A DNA stretch of 64,000 nucleotides from a plasmid. The DNA is taken from the sequence record CP088595.1. One strand, written 5' to 3'. Position numbers and translations under genes: made by a program. The first letter of the stretch is position 1; every line of letters begins with the position of its first letter. The notes beneath the pieces were generated by a model. That model ran no database searches. It was not told the DNA's origin and was given only the letters and a program-made list of their open reading frames with translations. Below are positions 59,527-63,519 of the stretch, in pieces.

Positions 59527-59622
59527 TCAGTCGATAAGTTCCCGGATCAGTTCCAGAACAGCAATCAGCGCGTTTGCAACGGCAACTACTGCCCTGAGAA
59601 CGATGATTAACAGATTAATCAT
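59527..59622 (-). CDS. Candidate type I toxin-like small hydrophobic peptide (31 aa), DinQ/TisB-like
   Basis: MINLLIIVLRAVVAVANALIAVLELIRELID with GGAG 9 nt upstream. Resembles E. coli DinQ (…IVLGALIALLELIRFLLQLLN). Direct repeats lie upstream, as in the dinQ-agrAB arrangement. Confidence 0.35.
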   Translation of the reverse strand: MINLLIIVLRAVVAVANALIAVLELIRELID

Positions 59623-59694
59623 CCGCTTCTCCATCACTGGAGAAAGAACCCCGTTGTTCGCTCTTACACTGCCTGTCACAACGGTTTCTATAGT

Positions 59695-59727
59695 GTCAGT
59701 TATAGACAGTTCTTCTCCGACCAGAGC
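59695..59727. repeat. 33-bp direct repeat, copy 1 (in the 5' region of the DinQ-like ORF transcript)
   Basis: GTCAGTTATAGACAGTTCTTCTCCGACCAGAGC. Copy 2 at 59883-59915 differs at one position. Confidence 0.8.
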
Positions 59728-59882
59728 ACCAAAACCAGCACCACCTGATGTTTTGGCCAGGACTTGCAACCTGTTCTTCCCGCTGAACAATATGTCGGAC
59801 AGAACATGCCTCAGAGCTGACATGCCGAGTATACACTTATCCAGTACTTGCAGAAATATAATTCCAGACGTACTATCTACAA

Positions 59883-59915
59883 GTCAGTTATAGACAGTTC
59901 TTTTCCGACCAGAGC
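59883..59915. repeat. 33-bp direct repeat, copy 2
   Basis: GTCAGTTATAGACAGTTCTTTTCCGACCAGAGC. Confidence 0.8.
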
Positions 59916-59935
59916 CACCCACTCTGTAACGGAAC

Positions 59936-59969
59936 AGTAAAAAAACCGACCTCACCAGTCGGTTTTTTT
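59936..59969. terminator. Bidirectional hairpin terminator
   Basis: AAAAAAACCGACCTCACCAGTCGGTTTTTTT. Confidence 0.6.
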
Positions 59970-60122
59970 ACATCTGTTGTTTCTCAAAATCCGCCCGACA
60001 TGCCCGTCACACCGGGGAAACTCATGCTTTGAATCAGAACCAATCATCTCAACTTTGCCGTCTCCTGAAAAAACTGGCACATTCAGTTCGATAACTACCC
60101 ATAAATACAGAGAGAAAATCCG

Positions 60123-60374
60123 ATGTCAGAAAAGTGGAGTAAAGAATTCGACTCTTGCTTTCAGGTGGGGAGCATAGAAGAAATTGCCGATGCTCTCGAG
60201 AAACGCAGCGGAAGCGAGGAAAACGCGTTAGCCATGCTGGCAATGACAGCCTTCACACTCATGACCCGACGTGGTATCTGCGAAATGCAGAACGTGGCCC
60301 CCGATGGCAAAGGCATTCGGCTGGAGCTAATCGGCTTCAGGGAAAATGAAACAATACCAGATACGCTTCATTGA
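60123..60374 (+). CDS. Hypothetical protein (83 aa)
   Basis: ORF with a weak SD. No motif support. Confidence 0.3.
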   Translation: MSEKWSKEFDSCFQVGSIEEIADALEKRSGSEENALAMLAMTAFTLMTRRGICEMQNVAPDGKGIRLELIGFRENETIPDTLH

Positions 60375-60445: not shown

Positions 60446-60598
60446 TTAACGTTTAACTTCGTAGGCTAACGTTGCCACAAGCACTGTGTTTCCCTGCTGG
60501 AGCCGGAGTCCGCAAAGCGAATCCCTCACCATCCAGACAAAACACAGAATCGTCACACAGACGACGATTAACATCATTAAAAACGTTCGCTGTGGCAT
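60446..60598 (-). CDS. pndA: PndA, Hok-family membrane toxin (50 aa) of the pnd post-segregational killing locus
   Basis: Minus-strand translation MPQRTFLMMLIVVCVTILCFVWMVRDSLCGLRLQQGNTVLVATLAYEVKR. This is the Hok/PndA family sequence, with stop TAA at 60446-60448. Confidence 0.85.
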   Translation of the reverse strand: MPQRTFLMMLIVVCVTILCFVWMVRDSLCGLRLQQGNTVLVATLAYEVKR

Positions 60599-60737
60599 CA
60601 TAGCCCCTCCATTGCCTTCCGGCGGTTATCGGGCTACTATAATGTTGTTGAGGCATTACAGTAGAGCCCTTGGTTGATTGATAAAAAAATCTCCAGGGGC
60701 TTTCTGCTGTATACCGTCCACAAAACGCTTTCGGCAT
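60453..60737 (-). CDS. pndC: PndC (Mok-like overlapping reading frame needed for pndA translation)
   Basis: Listed minus-strand ORF overlapping pndA in another frame, as mok overlaps hok. The true start within this frame is uncertain. Confidence 0.45.
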   Translation of the reverse strand: MPKAFCGRYTAESPWRFFYQSTKGSTVMPQQHYSSPITAGRQWRGYDATANVFNDVNRRLCDDSVFCLDGEGFALRTPAPAGKHSACGNVSLRS

Positions 60738-60796
60738 ACAGCCTCAAGCGCCCGCAGCTATTCTAACGACTTTCGTATCTGTAACAATCCTTTTAT
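60632..60796. repeat. 165-bp pnd control-region module, copy A (native, attached to pndCA)
   Basis: About 95 percent identical to 62053-62216. Contains the Sok-like promoter and terminator and, on the minus strand, the pnd mRNA promoter TTGTTA-N16-TAGAAT. Confidence 0.85.
60648..60712 (+). ncRNA. pndB: PndB (Sok-like) antisense RNA, predicted
   Basis: Plus-strand TATAAT at 60638-60643. It is followed by roughly 65 nt complementary to the pndA mRNA leader, ending in the hairpin AGCCCTTGG...CCAGGGGCT plus TTTCTGCTG. Confidence 0.45.
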
Positions 60797-60912
60797 TATT
60801 TGAATGATTCAGCGTTGTTTTTGAAGTTAACAACCAACCCAATACATGGTTCTCTACTTCACAACAACGCATGTTATGCTGATTTTAGTTAATAAAAGAA
60901 TCCCCTTAGGAG

Positions 60913-62004
60913 ATGGAAATGTCGCAGTTAAAACAACCTATTTTCCTGAAAAAGATAAAAAAAGTCATCAACACAATCCCTGGGCTTGAAGAGCAAATCT
61001 TTGCATGCCGAAATAAAAAACGCAGCGACAATCCATTATTATTTATCGACAGAAAAGATGAAGAACGCATACTAATGAGTCGTCTCCAGAGCCAACAAAA
61101 AAATGAAGAACTGGCTTCTAAACTAGAATCTTTATTTCATGGAAACGAATTATCGTCACCACACAGTATTTTGTGTTTTATATACTGGCGCTATACAAAG
61201 AAAATTTATCGCCTAAGCGAGGACATCATCAGTGATGTGGCTAACACCTATGTTGATAACATTCCTGCACAGATCCTCAAGGAACTCCCTTCATGGAGTA
61301 TCTATGTTTCAGCCGAAAATCTGCATACTATACTTCCTACGTCCTATCCGATACATGGATTTTTCTTTTATCCATTTTTGGACAATAATGGAAATATTAT
61401 CCGGCTTTTCATTATTGATGATCTGAAACAAAGTCAAGGAACTACAGGGCTAAAAGAAAAGGATGTTGACGTCGTCAATAATATCATCAGAATAAAGGAC
61501 TCTCGTGAAGGACTTCTTGACTCCAGAAAGATGGAGTGTATCGATGGTGAAGTCGTCGTAACAGTTAACGAAAAGCTCAAAGATTTCAGAGACAGGGAGT
61601 TTAATCTTCTTAACGCACAGATATCAATGGTGCTTTATATCTGTTCACAGATCAATGATATAAAAGAAAAAAATCAATTTAAACGGTCAGAAAAGCACAA
61701 AAAGCATGTTCACACTCACCATGAACTACCAGCACAAAACATTCGGGAGTGGGACGTTGGTATTCGAATGGGGCAAGCCATACGGCAATATCGCCAAGCA
61801 GAACCCACAGGGAAAGAGCGGACAACAATAGGTAGCAAACGTCCTCATATACGCCGGGGACACTGGCATACATACTGGACAGGAAGTAAGAAACCAGAAC
61901 TAGCCCATGAGCGTAAACCTAGATTAATATGGTTACCTCCGGTACCAGTTAATTTAGAAGACGTAAACAAACTACCGGTGGTAATAACACCCATTGATAA
62001 ATGA
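60913..62004 (+). CDS. Hypothetical protein (363 aa) encoded by an AT-rich insertion; function unknown
   Basis: Clean ORF with GGAGATGG SD-like AGGAG. Roughly 35-38 percent GC against about 50 percent for the backbone. I recognise no family. The C-terminal region is basic and His/Trp-rich (RPHIRRGHWHTYWTGSKKPE...RLIWLPPVPVN). Confidence 0.55.
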   Translation: MEMSQLKQPIFLKKIKKVINTIPGLEEQIFACRNKKRSDNPLLFIDRKDEERILMSRLQSQQKNEELASKLESLFHGNELSSPHSILCFIYWRYTKKIYRLSEDIISDVANTYVDNIPAQILKELPSWSIYVSAENLHTILPTSYPIHGFFFYPFLDNNGNIIRLFIIDDLKQSQGTTGLKEKDVDVVNNIIRIKDSREGLLDSRKMECIDGEVVVTVNEKLKDFRDREFNLLNAQISMVLYICSQINDIKEKNQFKRSEKHKKHVHTHHELPAQNIREWDVGIRMGQAIRQYRQAEPTGKERTTIGSKRPHIRRGHWHTYWTGSKKPELAHERKPRLIWLPPVPVNLEDVNKLPVVITPIDK

Positions 62005-62052
62005 CCTGAAAAGTATCTTTTCCGGTAGGATGTACACATATCTAAATTATCA

Positions 62053-62216
62053 GGCTACTATAATGTTGTCTAGGCATTACAGTAGAGCCCTTGGTTGATT
62101 GATAAAAAATCTCCAGGGGGCTTTCTGCTGTATACCATCCACAAAACGCTTTCGGCATACAGCCTCAAGCGTCCGCGGCTATTCTAACGACTTTCGTATC
62201 TGCAACAATCCTTTTA
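62053..62216. repeat. 165-bp pnd control-region module, copy B (orphan, adjacent to trbA)
   Basis: Retains the TATAAT and Sok-like hairpin on the plus strand and the TTGTTG-N16-TAGAAT promoter on the minus strand. No hok-like ORF follows it. Confidence 0.85.
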
Positions 62217-62310
62217 TCACACGGCTAATTCCTCTGGTTAGCTCTTATCGCCTGCAAATAAATTTTTAACCTTTCCGTTTGATTTAAATTCCAGAAATGG
62301 AGACTTTGTC

Positions 62311-63519
62311 ATGTCTTACAATCGACAGCCTGTCGCAGAAGATCCTATGCAGATATGGGGCGCTGTTGGTGTCCTTCTTATCCTGCTGCTATTCGTCATA
62401 TGGTTATTCTTGCCGGAAGTGGTTTACGCCAGCTGCCTGATTCTTCATACCTTATGGGGACTGGTTGACTGGGGACCATTTCATAACTATGCAGCACCAC
62501 GATACAACCTGCTTGCCATGACCGGTAACAACGCCGCCAACATAAGCTATAGCCAGTGGGTTAACGTCATGGAGCAGACCATAGGTATTTTGTGGATGTA
62601 CCTCTTACCTGTGACACTCTGGTGTTTGTGGGAATGGTATCAACATCCGGGACAAAGCCGTTTCACCCGCAGACCAGTAGATATTACCCGACTGCCACAC
62701 ATCTTTGCTTCGTTGTCCCCTGCTATCGCCCCTGTACTGGAAGATGGTGATCCGGAAAAACTCTTTCATGGTGGTAAACGACCTGAACGGCGGGTTGCTC
62801 TCACCCCGGAAGCATTTGTCGAACAGCATACTCTCATCACCAATATGCAGCTCGATGTTGCAGCTGCAAGACGATGTTTCATGGCCCAGTTGGGTAAACC
62901 TTTAACGTCCTGGAAAGACATGGCACCACATGAAAAAGCGCTCTTTGCCATATTTGGCCTTCAGTATTTCCTGGATGATCGGAAGGCAGCATTAAAGCTC
63001 ATGGATACACTGAACCTCTCATGCAGAATTAAAAGCAAACGGGACAGCGGGAAATTCTGTACCCCTGTTTATTCACTGGCCAAATCAGCTTTCCAGAGAG
63101 TGATTAAAAGCAACGGAGCACAGCAATGGCTGAAACAACATCGCTACGTCCGCAGTGGGCTGGTCTGGCTGTATGCACATGACCTGCGGCTTACGCCACC
63201 CAACTGGATTTGGCTGAAAGGCGTGGACAGAACGCTGTTTTATGCATTACACCGCGCCAATACCACGAAAGGATTTATTGAAGGCGCTGGCGTGGTGGCC
63301 GTTGCACGTGCAGAGGCCGAAGCCATGCGTTTTGGCCTTCCCTGCCCTGAACCCTGTGTTGATGAAGCGGTGGAAGGCTTACGGCGGGATATGCTCAGTC
63401 TCGGTCTTATCTGGGATGAACCACAACCAGATCGCGACCGGAAACGCCGCATCCTGACCAACTGGTCCCTCACCGAAGACATCCTGCCCCGTACACCTGC
63501 TACAGACAACGAATTCTGA
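62311..63519 (+). CDS. trbA: TrbA (402 aa), membrane-associated transfer protein
   Basis: First large ORF after the pnd locus, as in R64 (exc-pnd-trbABC). N-terminal TM helices. Confidence 0.55.
   Translation: MSYNRQPVAEDPMQIWGAVGVLLILLLFVIWLFLPEVVYASCLILHTLWGLVDWGPFHNYAAPRYNLLAMTGNNAANISYSQWVNVMEQTIGILWMYLLPVTLWCLWEWYQHPGQSRFTRRPVDITRLPHIFASLSPAIAPVLEDGDPEKLFHGGKRPERRVALTPEAFVEQHTLITNMQLDVAAARRCFMAQLGKPLTSWKDMAPHEKALFAIFGLQYFLDDRKAALKLMDTLNLSCRIKSKRDSGKFCTPVYSLAKSAFQRVIKSNGAQQWLKQHRYVRSGLVWLYAHDLRLTPPNWIWLKGVDRTLFYALHRANTTKGFIEGAGVVAVARAEAEAMRFGLPCPEPCVDEAVEGLRRDMLSLGLIWDEPQPDRDRKRRILTNWSLTEDILPRTPATDNEF

Follow-up and report, generated by a model that had tools for sequence, protein, structure and literature searches.

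The finQ allele of the variable IncI pnd-trbA junction and its duplicated pnd control modules

The pnd-finQ-trbA region

The window is a 64,000-nucleotide stretch of plasmid DNA (record CP088595.1) in which the pnd toxin locus and trbA are separated by one AT-rich cargo gene bracketed by two copies of a short control module. The features of this region are listed below by window coordinates, strand and source.

60446..60598, minus strand: pndA, Hok/Gef-family type I toxin of 50 aa (ORF; annotation in NZ_CP020511.1)
60453..60737, minus strand: pndC-like (mok-type) frame overlapping pndA (ORF list; coordinates of the maximal ORF)
60596..60753, minus strand: pnd mRNA 5' leader of hok/sok type (RF01794), with the antisense target hairpin, loop C-CUCA-ACAA (fold)
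60626..60796, no strand assigned: repeat copy A, a complete pnd control module (PndB-like antisense gene, pnd mRNA 5' leader, pnd promoter)
60645..60705, plus strand: predicted PndB (Sok-like) antisense RNA gene of copy A (sequence reading; ends predicted)
60760..60787, minus strand: pnd mRNA promoter of copy A, TTGTTA-16-TAGAAT (promoter scan, consensus match only)
60797..62046, no strand assigned: AT-rich unique segment 'RD1', missing in R64 and ColIb-P9 (blastn against R64)
60919..62004, plus strand: finQ, AcrVA2-like fertility-inhibition protein of 361 aa (363 from 60913)
61186-61188, plus strand: finQ W90 codon (family alignment)
61846-61869, plus strand: finQ motif H310-I-R312-R-G-H315-W-H (family alignment)
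62047..62217, no strand assigned: repeat copy B, an orphan pnd control module without a toxin ORF, directly upstream of trbA
62066..62126, plus strand: predicted PndB-like antisense RNA gene of copy B (comparison with copy A, fold)
62181..62208, minus strand: pnd-type promoter TTGTTG-16-TAGAAT in copy B, reading into the finQ 3' end (sequence)
62311..63519, plus strand: trbA, conserved backbone gene forming the right flank (ORF list, annotation)

Together, copy A and pndCA resemble pnd (pndCA/pndB) of R483/R64, a system of the hok/sok type I family, as a complete locus: the predicted parts comprise a Hok-family toxin ORF, an overlapping mok-like frame, a structured leader, an antisense gene and both promoters. 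The toxin is labeled 'Hok/Gef family protein' in NZ_CP020511.1, a 100%-identical record. Reading of the sequence provides the PndB gene with a candidate promoter (TTGCCT-17-TACTAT/TATAAT) and a predicted terminator hairpin (AGCCCTTGG...CCAGGGGCT, then TTTCT) whose fold reaches -21.6 kcal/mol. Copy A lies upstream of pndA and pndC, and the original prediction that it serves pndCA was borne out.

The direct repeat spans 171 nt per copy, at 60626-60796 (copy A) and 62047-62217 (copy B), which slightly corrects the coordinates of a predicted 165-bp module pair of about 95% identity; the copies are 92% identical ungapped and ~95% identical when one compensated 1-nt shift (A7G4 vs A6G5) is allowed. 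The abrupt end of homology at both edges of the module was confirmed, and so was the Sok-like/hok-type nature of both copies. On the minus strand, each is recognized by the hok/sok leader model RF01794 with a score exceeding the gathering cutoff of 59 bits: copy A at 60596-60753 (132.8 bits, E = 2e-31) and copy B at 62017-62174 (86.4 bits), the latter alignment missing only the final ~30 positions of the model, which correspond to the mok start region. Chance is excluded as the origin of both matches. The duplicated unit is the whole pnd control module, a modest addition of the present analysis.

Copy B abuts trbA and contains no toxin ORF, as had been predicted of an orphan. Its homology to copy A ends at 62047, and a 38-aa remnant of the pndC frame persists at 62042-62158. 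It differs from pnd of R483/R64 in having the control half only (antisense gene, 5' part of the leader, promoter) and, without a toxin, is therefore a control module and not a toxin-antitoxin system. Its PndB-like gene retains the -10 element, but TACACA stands where the native -35 would be; for loop recognition it has CTAG instead of the TGAG of copy A, and the predicted terminator hairpin is weaker (-17.3 vs -21.6 kcal/mol). Judged from sequence only, its minus-strand promoter is retained and faces the 3' end of the cargo gene in antisense orientation. R64, ColIb-P9 and the plasmids L003 and L004 have this promoter allele as their only one for pnd, and it drives pndCA in empty-site plasmids.

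The 1,250 bp of unique DNA between the modules (60797-62046) carry one ORF (60913-62004, 363 aa). A single low-GC ORF had been anticipated and was found, although not at the anticipated GC of about 36%: the measured values are 0.385 for the segment and 0.39 for the finQ CDS, while trbA stands at 0.51 and the surroundings at about 0.50. Translation likely starts at the second ATG (60919), giving 361 aa; an AGGAG sequence (60908-60912) precedes this codon by 6 nt, and the N-termini of homologues read MSQLKQP.

This cargo gene, which the original prediction could place in no family, is finQ, the classical fertility-inhibition gene of IncI plasmids. Over 2 kb, the region matches at 100% identity plasmids whose annotation reads finQ, Hok/Gef, trbA; the whole arrangement recurs in about 390 plasmid records annotated finQ, and the protein shows no difference (100% identity) from the 'protein finQ' cluster of RefSeq/nr. 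A tblastn search located FinQ in 549 plasmids (393 full length; 502 at >=99% identity). R621a has the same layout, position and flanking duplication, colinear with the window and with 8 mismatches in 1,250 bp (0.64% DNA divergence). FinQ of the IncI plasmids R820a, R62 and R621a, reportedly the subject of work by Ham and Skurray in 1989, is the same gene with no substantive difference.

Length polymorphism at this locus has been in use in IncI1 pMLST since 2008. Variation in the length of the trbA-pndC interval was attributed to finQ (PMC2887853), and a 1,250-bp FinQ insertion ('RD1') accompanied by a duplicated 173-bp intergenic sequence was described in 2021 (PMC8004404). The arrangement is thus not novel, since canonical IncI backbones have both repeats and this gene, with a function annotated, at the same position. 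The identity of finQ, its position, the 173-bp duplication and the kinship with AcrVA2 are all already in the literature; since finQ has long been known and its insertion beside a duplicated pnd region is published, the observation is real but ordinary. Modest additions are the duplication of the complete module, two other cargos, at least five shuffling loop alleles and a truncated RefSeq finQ.

Available database models of FinQ need to be handled with care. The RefSeq finQ CDS is N-terminally truncated, starting at ATC 61225 and giving 259 aa; it is devoid of ~100 N-terminal residues, including the functionally important Trp. The Swiss-Prot entry FINQ_ECOLX (342 aa) is 83-86% identical to the FinQ studied here, the differences being frameshift-like blocks, and the RRGHWHTYW motif is hit by one of these; the entry appears to contain sequencing errors within the putative catalytic motif. 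Moreover, gene fragments remaining behind blaCMY-2 insertions still carry the name FinQ.

FinQ and the AcrVA2-like family

Local scans of the protein against Pfam and NCBIfam returned no match, and PADLOC gave a weak match only (E = 0.009). The AcrVA2-like family was found via phmmer against the PDB, PHROGs and precomputed Pfam labels: AcrVA2 (7ci1_A) was matched with E = 3.9e-17 over residues 85-160 and 232-347, including KRPHIRRGHWHxYW, PHROG 6160 was matched with E = 1e-47, and all FinQ homologues bear the precomputed PF26125 'AcrVA2-like' label. In a 10-sequence family alignment, H310, R312 and W90 are invariant and H315 nearly so. On these sequence comparisons, FinQ is a member of the AcrVA2-like family (PF26125). 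An AF2 model built from the same alignment is too poor for a claim on the fold (mean pLDDT 50.5); a Foldseek search with it against the PDB returned 7ci1/7ci2 as the sole significant matches (E ~6e-5), with TM-scores of only 0.20-0.28.

Comparison with AcrVA2 (7CI1/7CI2) reveals a shared core and a divergent periphery. FinQ has kept the Trp and the C-terminal H-x-R-x-x-H block on which AcrVA2 activity depends, W79 corresponding to W90 and H286, R288 and H291 to H310, R312 and H315, and both proteins act against a rival genetic element by reducing the mRNA of a target that it encodes. In contrast, the target is Cas12a for AcrVA2 and the F tra genes for FinQ, the N-terminal target-binding part has diverged (D89 is aligned with a Ser in FinQ), and FinQ is ~40 residues longer. 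Homology between FinQ and AcrVA2 was already stated in a study showing that AcrVA2 acts via the nascent N-terminal peptide of Cas12a, leading to translation-dependent mRNA loss (bioRxiv 10.1101/2022.11.29.518452), and a review describes FinQ as a factor that lowers or terminates transcription of F tra (PMC8744291). The AcrVA2 preprint counts roughly 1,800 proteins in the family.

FinQ would be the means by which an IncI plasmid shuts down conjugative transfer of a co-resident F-type plasmid. By homology, FinQ most likely binds the nascent N-terminal peptide of at least one F Tra protein, and this binding would lead to the loss of tra operon mRNA. Membership in the AcrVA2-like family makes it probable that FinQ destroys F tra mRNA in such a nascent-peptide-directed way, a mechanism that would account for the classical drop in tra transcript levels. 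Its ecological role, blocking the conjugation of a co-resident rival plasmid, is the same as that of PifC, Osa, FinC, FipA and FinW, which are unrelated proteins acting at other steps (e.g., the coupling protein or traM transcription). Some IncI1 plasmids have pifC in place of finQ (PMC5696584).

Family membership could also be taken to mean that FinQ is primarily an anti-defense protein, either an anti-CRISPR of the AcrVA2 kind or one that inhibits some other immune protein of the host, with inhibition of F as a side effect; a Kosakonia homologue located in an integrase-bounded island beside a TIR-domain gene points in this direction. Yet AcrVA2 homologues are typically found in bacteria without Cas12a and the N-terminal region of FinQ diverges (bioRxiv 10.1101/2022.11.29.518452), and in published genetic work FinQ is recognized by two effects, the inhibition of F transfer and a lower level of tra mRNA. 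A primary anti-defense role is very unlikely.

Structural alleles of the junction and origin of the finQ segment

Relative to R64 (NC_005014), homology detected by blastn stops on the left at 60796 and restarts at 62047. R64, ColIb-P9 and about 757 other plasmids have an uninterrupted pnd-trbA junction. An insertion into a conserved backbone site had been proposed, and the polymorphism stands; its size does not, as the net extra DNA amounts to 1,421 bp (1,250 unique plus one 171-bp repeat) rather than 1.25 kb. The site also behaves as a variable slot, as suggested earlier, for two other unrelated AT-rich cargo genes occupy it in 104 and 53 plasmids, likewise beside module fragments; these encode an RHH-HTH protein and a 302-aa orphan. 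Plasmid H163 carries cargo 2 and H121 is effectively empty. An apparent ~840-bp insertion in H142-H144, considered as a fifth structural allele, was discarded, the search having joined empty sites and an upstream orphan module.

Taken together, we estimate at roughly 85% the probability that the window carries the finQ allele of a variable IncI pnd-trbA junction, encoding an AcrVA2-like FinQ, inserted with duplication of the pnd module and spread by recombination. The AT-rich 1,250-bp segment would have been acquired by an IncI backbone where the pnd (hok/sok-type) cassette has its outer edge, and the same event would have duplicated the 171-bp control module; copy A would still control pndCA, and copy B would be a toxin-less by-product left between finQ and trbA. 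The allele would then spread among IncI plasmids through ordinary homologous recombination, with crossovers often falling inside the modules and therefore producing shuffled alleles in the A and B copies. Such shuffling of the loop and other alleles between the two copies was observed in the window, in R621a and in plasmid L007, whereas the finQ-proximal ends stay linked to finQ. In favor of a foreign origin of the segment are its GC (0.385 against about 0.50), its divergence, which is below that of most flanks, and the restriction of homology to the CDS in Kosakonia, Serratia and a phage-like contig.

The modules do not seem to have come with finQ from its source. Among the finQ homologues of Kosakonia, Serratia and a metagenomic/phage-like contig, no sok-like RNA was found and DNA homology is confined to the CDS, which led us to reject that scenario and leaves the idea of the pnd module as a portable homology arm without support outside IncI. 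Nor could empty sites be retained as simple products of A x B crossovers, their alleles being too mosaic to decide.

Conversely, the finQ arrangement could be ancestral, the empty R64-type junction having arisen by deletion through recombination between the 171-bp repeats. Direct repeats of this length are good substrates for deletion, plasmid L006, which equals L005 minus one inter-module interval, shows that such deletions occur, and the single modules of empty plasmids are mosaics of A- and B-copy alleles. However, the finQ segment is richer in AT than the backbone and, in diverse backbones, nearly clonal, and its divergence (0.4-0.64%, in a comparison of three plasmids only) is below that of most flanks; IncK2/Z relatives have one module with unrelated neighbors, and the two other cargos in the slot fit repeated acquisition. 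We consider an ancestral finQ unlikely.

How cargo reached the slot is a related question. The three cargos join the backbone within ~3 bp (R64rc 2196-2199), as would be expected if a dedicated mobile element (a transposon, an integron-like cassette or a site-specific recombination system) targeted the module edge. This explanation is already largely refuted and must be regarded as extremely improbable: the finQ segment consists of a single ORF without transposase, integrase or other recombinase gene, no terminal inverted repeats were found in it, comparison of the three cargo segments revealed neither similarity nor shared end sequences, and a 171-bp duplication far exceeds the length of a target-site duplication. 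The three cargo proteins likewise share no similarity with each other. Furthermore, in IncK2/Z plasmids the homology to pnd stops at this very edge and unrelated backbone genes follow, so that the edge marks where the pnd cassette ends and is no target site. A site-specific insertion point, considered because the three left junctions fall within ~3 bp, was rejected on the same ground, and the recurrence of the breakpoint reflects the natural end of the cassette.

Orphan modules and significance of the locus

The reading of copy B as a by-product of finQ entry can be set against one in which it is a functional element and not a recombination scar, namely a second PndB-like antitoxin RNA with another loop specificity. 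Such an RNA could have an anti-addiction role, shielding the host from the pnd toxin of an IncI plasmid that is a rival or has been displaced, and the pnd promoter might yield an antisense RNA tuning finQ. Several observations are consistent with this proposal: copy B retains the -10, RNA body and terminator and has a pnd promoter allele identical to that of functional single-copy modules, it is colinear in 390/390 full-length records, and further orphan modules lie elsewhere within the excA-trbA interval. The variable tetranucleotide sits in the apical loop of the target hairpin, at least five alleles of which were found (CUCA, CUAG, UUCG, AUGA and GUGA in mRNA sense), all keeping U-N-R, with TGAG, CTAG, CGAA, TCAT and TCAC as the PndB alleles, and the A and B loop alleles differ in 3/3 plasmids examined. 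Downstream of the copy B promoter, the first terminator-like site is only at 60914-60900. Nevertheless, the PndB promoter is deprived of its native -35, some B copies (R621a, L002) show a TATAAT->TGTAAT change, and the terminator hairpin is weaker. Mismatched loop pairs still duplex strongly (-95 vs -108 kcal/mol), and because these cross-duplexes are very stable, a difference in specificity between loop alleles is unproven; given five alleles, an A/B mismatch in 3/3 plasmids would also arise by chance about half the time. A functional copy B is hence possible but improbable.

By a bolder and quite doubtful extension, the pnd-module repeats would mark a recombinational cassette slot for conflict genes, in which toxin-less PndB-like genes act in anti-addiction and their promoters provide antisense control of the cargo. 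If so, I-complex plasmids would possess, upstream of trbA, a slot with interchangeable AT-rich genes for FinQ, the RHH-HTH protein or the 302-aa orphan, and the leftover PndB-like genes, with their diversified loop alleles, would neutralize the pnd toxin of rival or displaced IncI plasmids.

The practical value of the finQ allele lies in annotation and typing: a truncated RefSeq model, an error-laden Swiss-Prot entry, and a mixed pMLST signal, the trbA-pndC locus combining four structural alleles with recombining module alleles. The orphan antisense-RNA modules raise a small, testable question on cross-immunity between the addiction systems of competing plasmids. Finally, the genetic tractability of its target, the F tra operon, makes FinQ an appealing second system in which to study mRNA destruction of the AcrVA2 type, directed by a peptide.

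The repeat, its insert and the finQ gene

Copies A and B of the pnd control module, lying beside pndCA and trbA respectively, are direct repeats of 171 nt each, with 92% ungapped identity (~95% with one compensated single-base shift), and their similarity breaks off sharply at both edges. They enclose 1,250 bp, hereafter the finQ segment, with a GC content of 0.385 versus 0.51 for trbA:

60626-60796: copy A
60797-62046: finQ segment, with a single long ORF (60913-62004)
62047-62217: copy B

An Rfam scan with RF01794, the hok/sok model describing the toxin mRNA leader, matched both copies on the minus strand above the gathering score of 59 bits, copy A at 60596-60753 (132.8 bits) and copy B at 62017-62174 (86.4 bits), where the alignment lacks just the final ~30 positions of the model, those around the mok/hok start. 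Against R64, left homology stops at 60796 and restarts at 62047; 171 bp of R64 are matched twice by the window, and the net extra DNA amounts to 1,421 bp. The original prediction of a repeat bracketing an AT-rich insert is therefore confirmed, requiring only slight changes to the coordinates, to the estimated GC and to the '1.25 kb' spacing. As it also anticipated, R64 and ColIb-P9 lack the insert and their pnd locus directly adjoins trbA, a junction found in ~757 records in total.

The ORF, initially regarded as unplaceable, is identified by sequence as finQ, since plasmids with the annotations finQ, Hok/Gef and trbA match the 2-kb region at 100% identity. The whole arrangement occurs in 390 PLSDB records and is shared by R621a, the reference plasmid for IncI-gamma. 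A tblastn search located the protein in 549 plasmids; 393 matches cover its full length and 502 show ≥99% identity. Roughly 110-120 of these copies are broken off near residue 115, the gene being interrupted by an IS-blaCMY-blc-sugE unit, as in comparison locus L002. Fragments left by this insertion (e.g., L002 2968-3750) keep the name 'protein FinQ'. PMC8004404 reports FinQ as a 1,250-bp insertion accompanied by a second copy of a 173-bp intergenic sequence. Moreover, finQ was reported to cause length variation of the trbA-pndC pMLST locus, one plasmid carrying IS66 between finQ and pndC (PMC2887853). The presumed novelty of the insertion thus does not hold, finQ and both repeats having already been published at the same site in other IncI plasmids: the gene is named, and its insertion with duplication and its family link are in the literature.

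FinQ most likely comprises 361 residues starting at 60919, given that AGGAG (60908-60912) abuts the first ATG (60913) and lies 6 nt before the second (60919), and that the Kosakonia and Serratia homologues start MSQLKQP. The same length is given in PMC8004404. The RefSeq/PGAP model (259 aa, 61225-62004, versus 60919-62004) begins at a non-canonical ATC at 61225 and lacks ~100 N-terminal residues, including the conserved W90, which corresponds to the functionally important W79 of AcrVA2. The Swiss-Prot entry FINQ_ECOLX (342 aa), based on the 1989 reference sequence, shows local frameshift-like blocks relative to all modern copies, probably old sequencing errors; it reads RRDT-GIHTDRS where modern copies have RRGHWHTYWTGS, the AcrVA2-type catalytic motif.

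Acquisition of finQ followed by spread through homologous recombination is the favoured history on sequence grounds, considering the AT-richness of the segment, the near-clonality of the gene and a divergence of 0.4-0.64%, below that of most flanks in a small sample. The same three features argue against the converse scenario, in which finQ would be ancestral and R64-type plasmids would derive from it by deletion, and which we consider improbable.

Architecture and alleles of the pnd control module

The repeated unit appears to span the entire control half of pnd rather than a mere 'intergenic sequence'. Its elements in copy A, in plus-strand order, and the promoter of copy B are:

First: -10 of the PndB (Sok-like) promoter
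Second: predicted PndB antisense RNA and terminator hairpin
Third: first ~130 nt of the pnd mRNA leader, opposite strand
Fourth, 60787-60760, minus strand: pnd promoter, TTGTTA-16-TAGAAT
Copy B, 62208-62181, minus strand: pnd promoter, TTGTTG-16-TAGAAT

On the left, the repeat begins within the PndB promoter, after the -35 box and before the -10 box; the -35 reads TTGCCT in copy A and TACACA in copy B. The pnd promoter of copy B is probably active, as the same allele is the sole pnd promoter of R64, ColIb-P9 and two further comparison loci (L003 and L004). As first proposed, it would be aimed into the 3' end of finQ; the first terminator-like site downstream lies at 60914-60900 on the minus strand. 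This hairpin, ATCTCCTAAGGGGAT followed by a T-run, is a consensus match only, located exactly at the start of finQ and overlapping its ribosome-binding site.

Two base changes in one tetranucleotide (TGAG versus CTAG) and a 1-nt hairpin shift distinguish the antisense RNA of copy A from that of copy B. Cognate pairs form predicted full duplexes of -108 kcal/mol and crossed pairs duplexes of -95 to -96 kcal/mol; crossed pairing is thus thermodynamically possible in the model. The tetranucleotide (60649-60652 and 62070-62073, with equivalents in L002-L011) forms part of the apical loop in the target hairpin of the pnd mRNA (C-CUCA-ACAA) and also coincides with the predicted PndB 5' end. At least five alleles (TGAG, CTAG, CGAA, TCAT and TCAC) exist among the plasmids examined, always keeping U-N-R in the mRNA sense, and this hypervariable loop may be a specificity determinant. 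Plasmids with an uninterrupted pnd-trbA junction carry CGAA or CTAG; those with two copies include:

Window: copy A TGAG, copy B CTAG
R621a: copy A CTAG, copy B TCAT
L007 (comparison locus): copy A CGAA, copy B TGAG

Because alleles are not tied to either copy, the 5% by which A and B differ stems from recombination among plasmid lineages, not from divergence after local duplication. The finQ-proximal polymorphisms of each copy remain linked to finQ, as expected if crossovers fall within modules. A role of orphan PndB-like genes with diversified loops in cross-immunity against the pnd systems of rival plasmids is unlikely.

The variable pnd-trbA slot and its surroundings

Two further AT-rich cargos occupy the slot, and no similarity was found among the three, at the protein or DNA level:

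Cargo 2, L005 3801-4754, L006 1742-2728 and L013 3169-4155: 317/328-aa protein, GC 0.38, 104 plasmids
Cargo 3, L008 2066-2974: 302-aa protein, GC 0.30, 53 plasmids, mostly Salmonella pESI megaplasmids

The cargo 2 protein has a FitA-like ribbon-helix-helix at its N terminus (PF22513, E = 2e-6) and matches HTH_3 weakly; its C-terminal half is uncharacterised. Upstream of the gene lie a full module and a partial module of the Sok-only type, and downstream lies a diverged Sok-like hairpin. In pI_050613 (L006) the cargo 2 allele is shorter by exactly one interval between modules, joined within the Sok segment: at 1468-1700 recombination of the full module with the partial one has taken away the pnd promoter together with ~50 nt from the 5' end of the pnd mRNA. 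It is a clear product of module-by-module recombination, and its pndA toxin gene is probably silent. Cargo 3 has no match in Pfam, PHROGs, PADLOC or PDB. A 45-nt piece of the module right end lies upstream of it and a module downstream; these plasmids have lost pndCA and the 83-aa gene, leaving module fragments only.

The site is therefore partly a hot spot, as suggested. The left junctions of the three cargos fall within ~3 bp of one another; nevertheless, the module edge was rejected as a target sequence, since pnd homology stops at the same edge in IncK2/Z plasmids, with unrelated genes beyond. This edge is instead the natural end of the pnd cassette. The proposed 'portable homology arm' holds only in a weak form within IncI plasmids, where modules are frequent crossover sites, and not outside them, where homology of finQ homologues is limited to the CDS and no sok-like module was found nearby. 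No transposon hallmarks were found for the finQ segment.

A second type I toxin-antitoxin locus lies at 59527-59971:

59527-59622, minus strand: dqlB (DinQ-like toxin)
59884-59971, plus strand: AgrB-type antisense RNA (RF02891, 53.7 bits)

Through a 33-nt repeat (59695-59727 and 59883-59915), the AgrB-like RNA would be able to base-pair with the leader of the dqlB mRNA. Directly beyond pndA lies a conserved hypothetical gene of 83 aa (60123-60374), which most of the IncI plasmids examined carry. In a subset of IncI plasmids, the stretch between dqlB and this gene contains as many as three AgrB-like copies along with another, more diverged orphan sok-like module (L004 2602-3308; L007 364-1070; ColIb-P9 near 48582). 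The excA-trbA interval as a whole is thus a mosaic in which control modules of type I antitoxins recur.

FinQ and the anti-CRISPR AcrVA2

FinQ has been described as a factor by which IncI plasmids inhibit fertility: F transfer is blocked and tra operon transcripts are lowered or terminated (PMC8744291; PMC5696584; bioRxiv 10.1101/2022.11.29.518452). Sequence comparison shows homology with the anti-CRISPR AcrVA2: a phmmer search of PDB matched 7ci1 (AcrVA2) over residues 85-160 and 232-347 (E = 3.9e-17), with KRPHIRRGHWHxYW aligned, and Pfam PF26125 ('AcrVA2-like') is assigned to all database homologues, in agreement with UniRef names of close relatives. In a 10-sequence FinQ alignment, W90, H310 and R312 do not vary and H315 hardly does; these residues correspond to W79, H286, R288 and H291 of AcrVA2, mutation of which impairs activity (bioRxiv 10.1101/2022.11.29.518452). 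The AlphaFold model of FinQ is poor (pLDDT 50.5), too poor for a claim on the fold; its only significant PDB matches were AcrVA2 chains, at TM-scores of 0.20-0.28.

A homologue 77% identical to FinQ lies in an integrase-bounded chromosomal island of Kosakonia sp. MUSA4 (L017 2956-3852), where it immediately follows a CAP12/PCTIR TIR-domain gene and has a CbtA toxin nearby; by gene content this appears to be a defence or conflict island.

AcrVA2 is reported to bind the N-terminal nascent peptide of Cas12a and thereby to trigger a translation-dependent loss of the Cas12a mRNA, and the preprint names FinQ as a homologue, probably with the same mechanism and another target (bioRxiv 10.1101/2022.11.29.518452). 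Taken with the homology, the best reading by analogy is that FinQ would recognise one or more nascent Tra peptides of F, and that this recognition would lead to the loss of tra mRNA.
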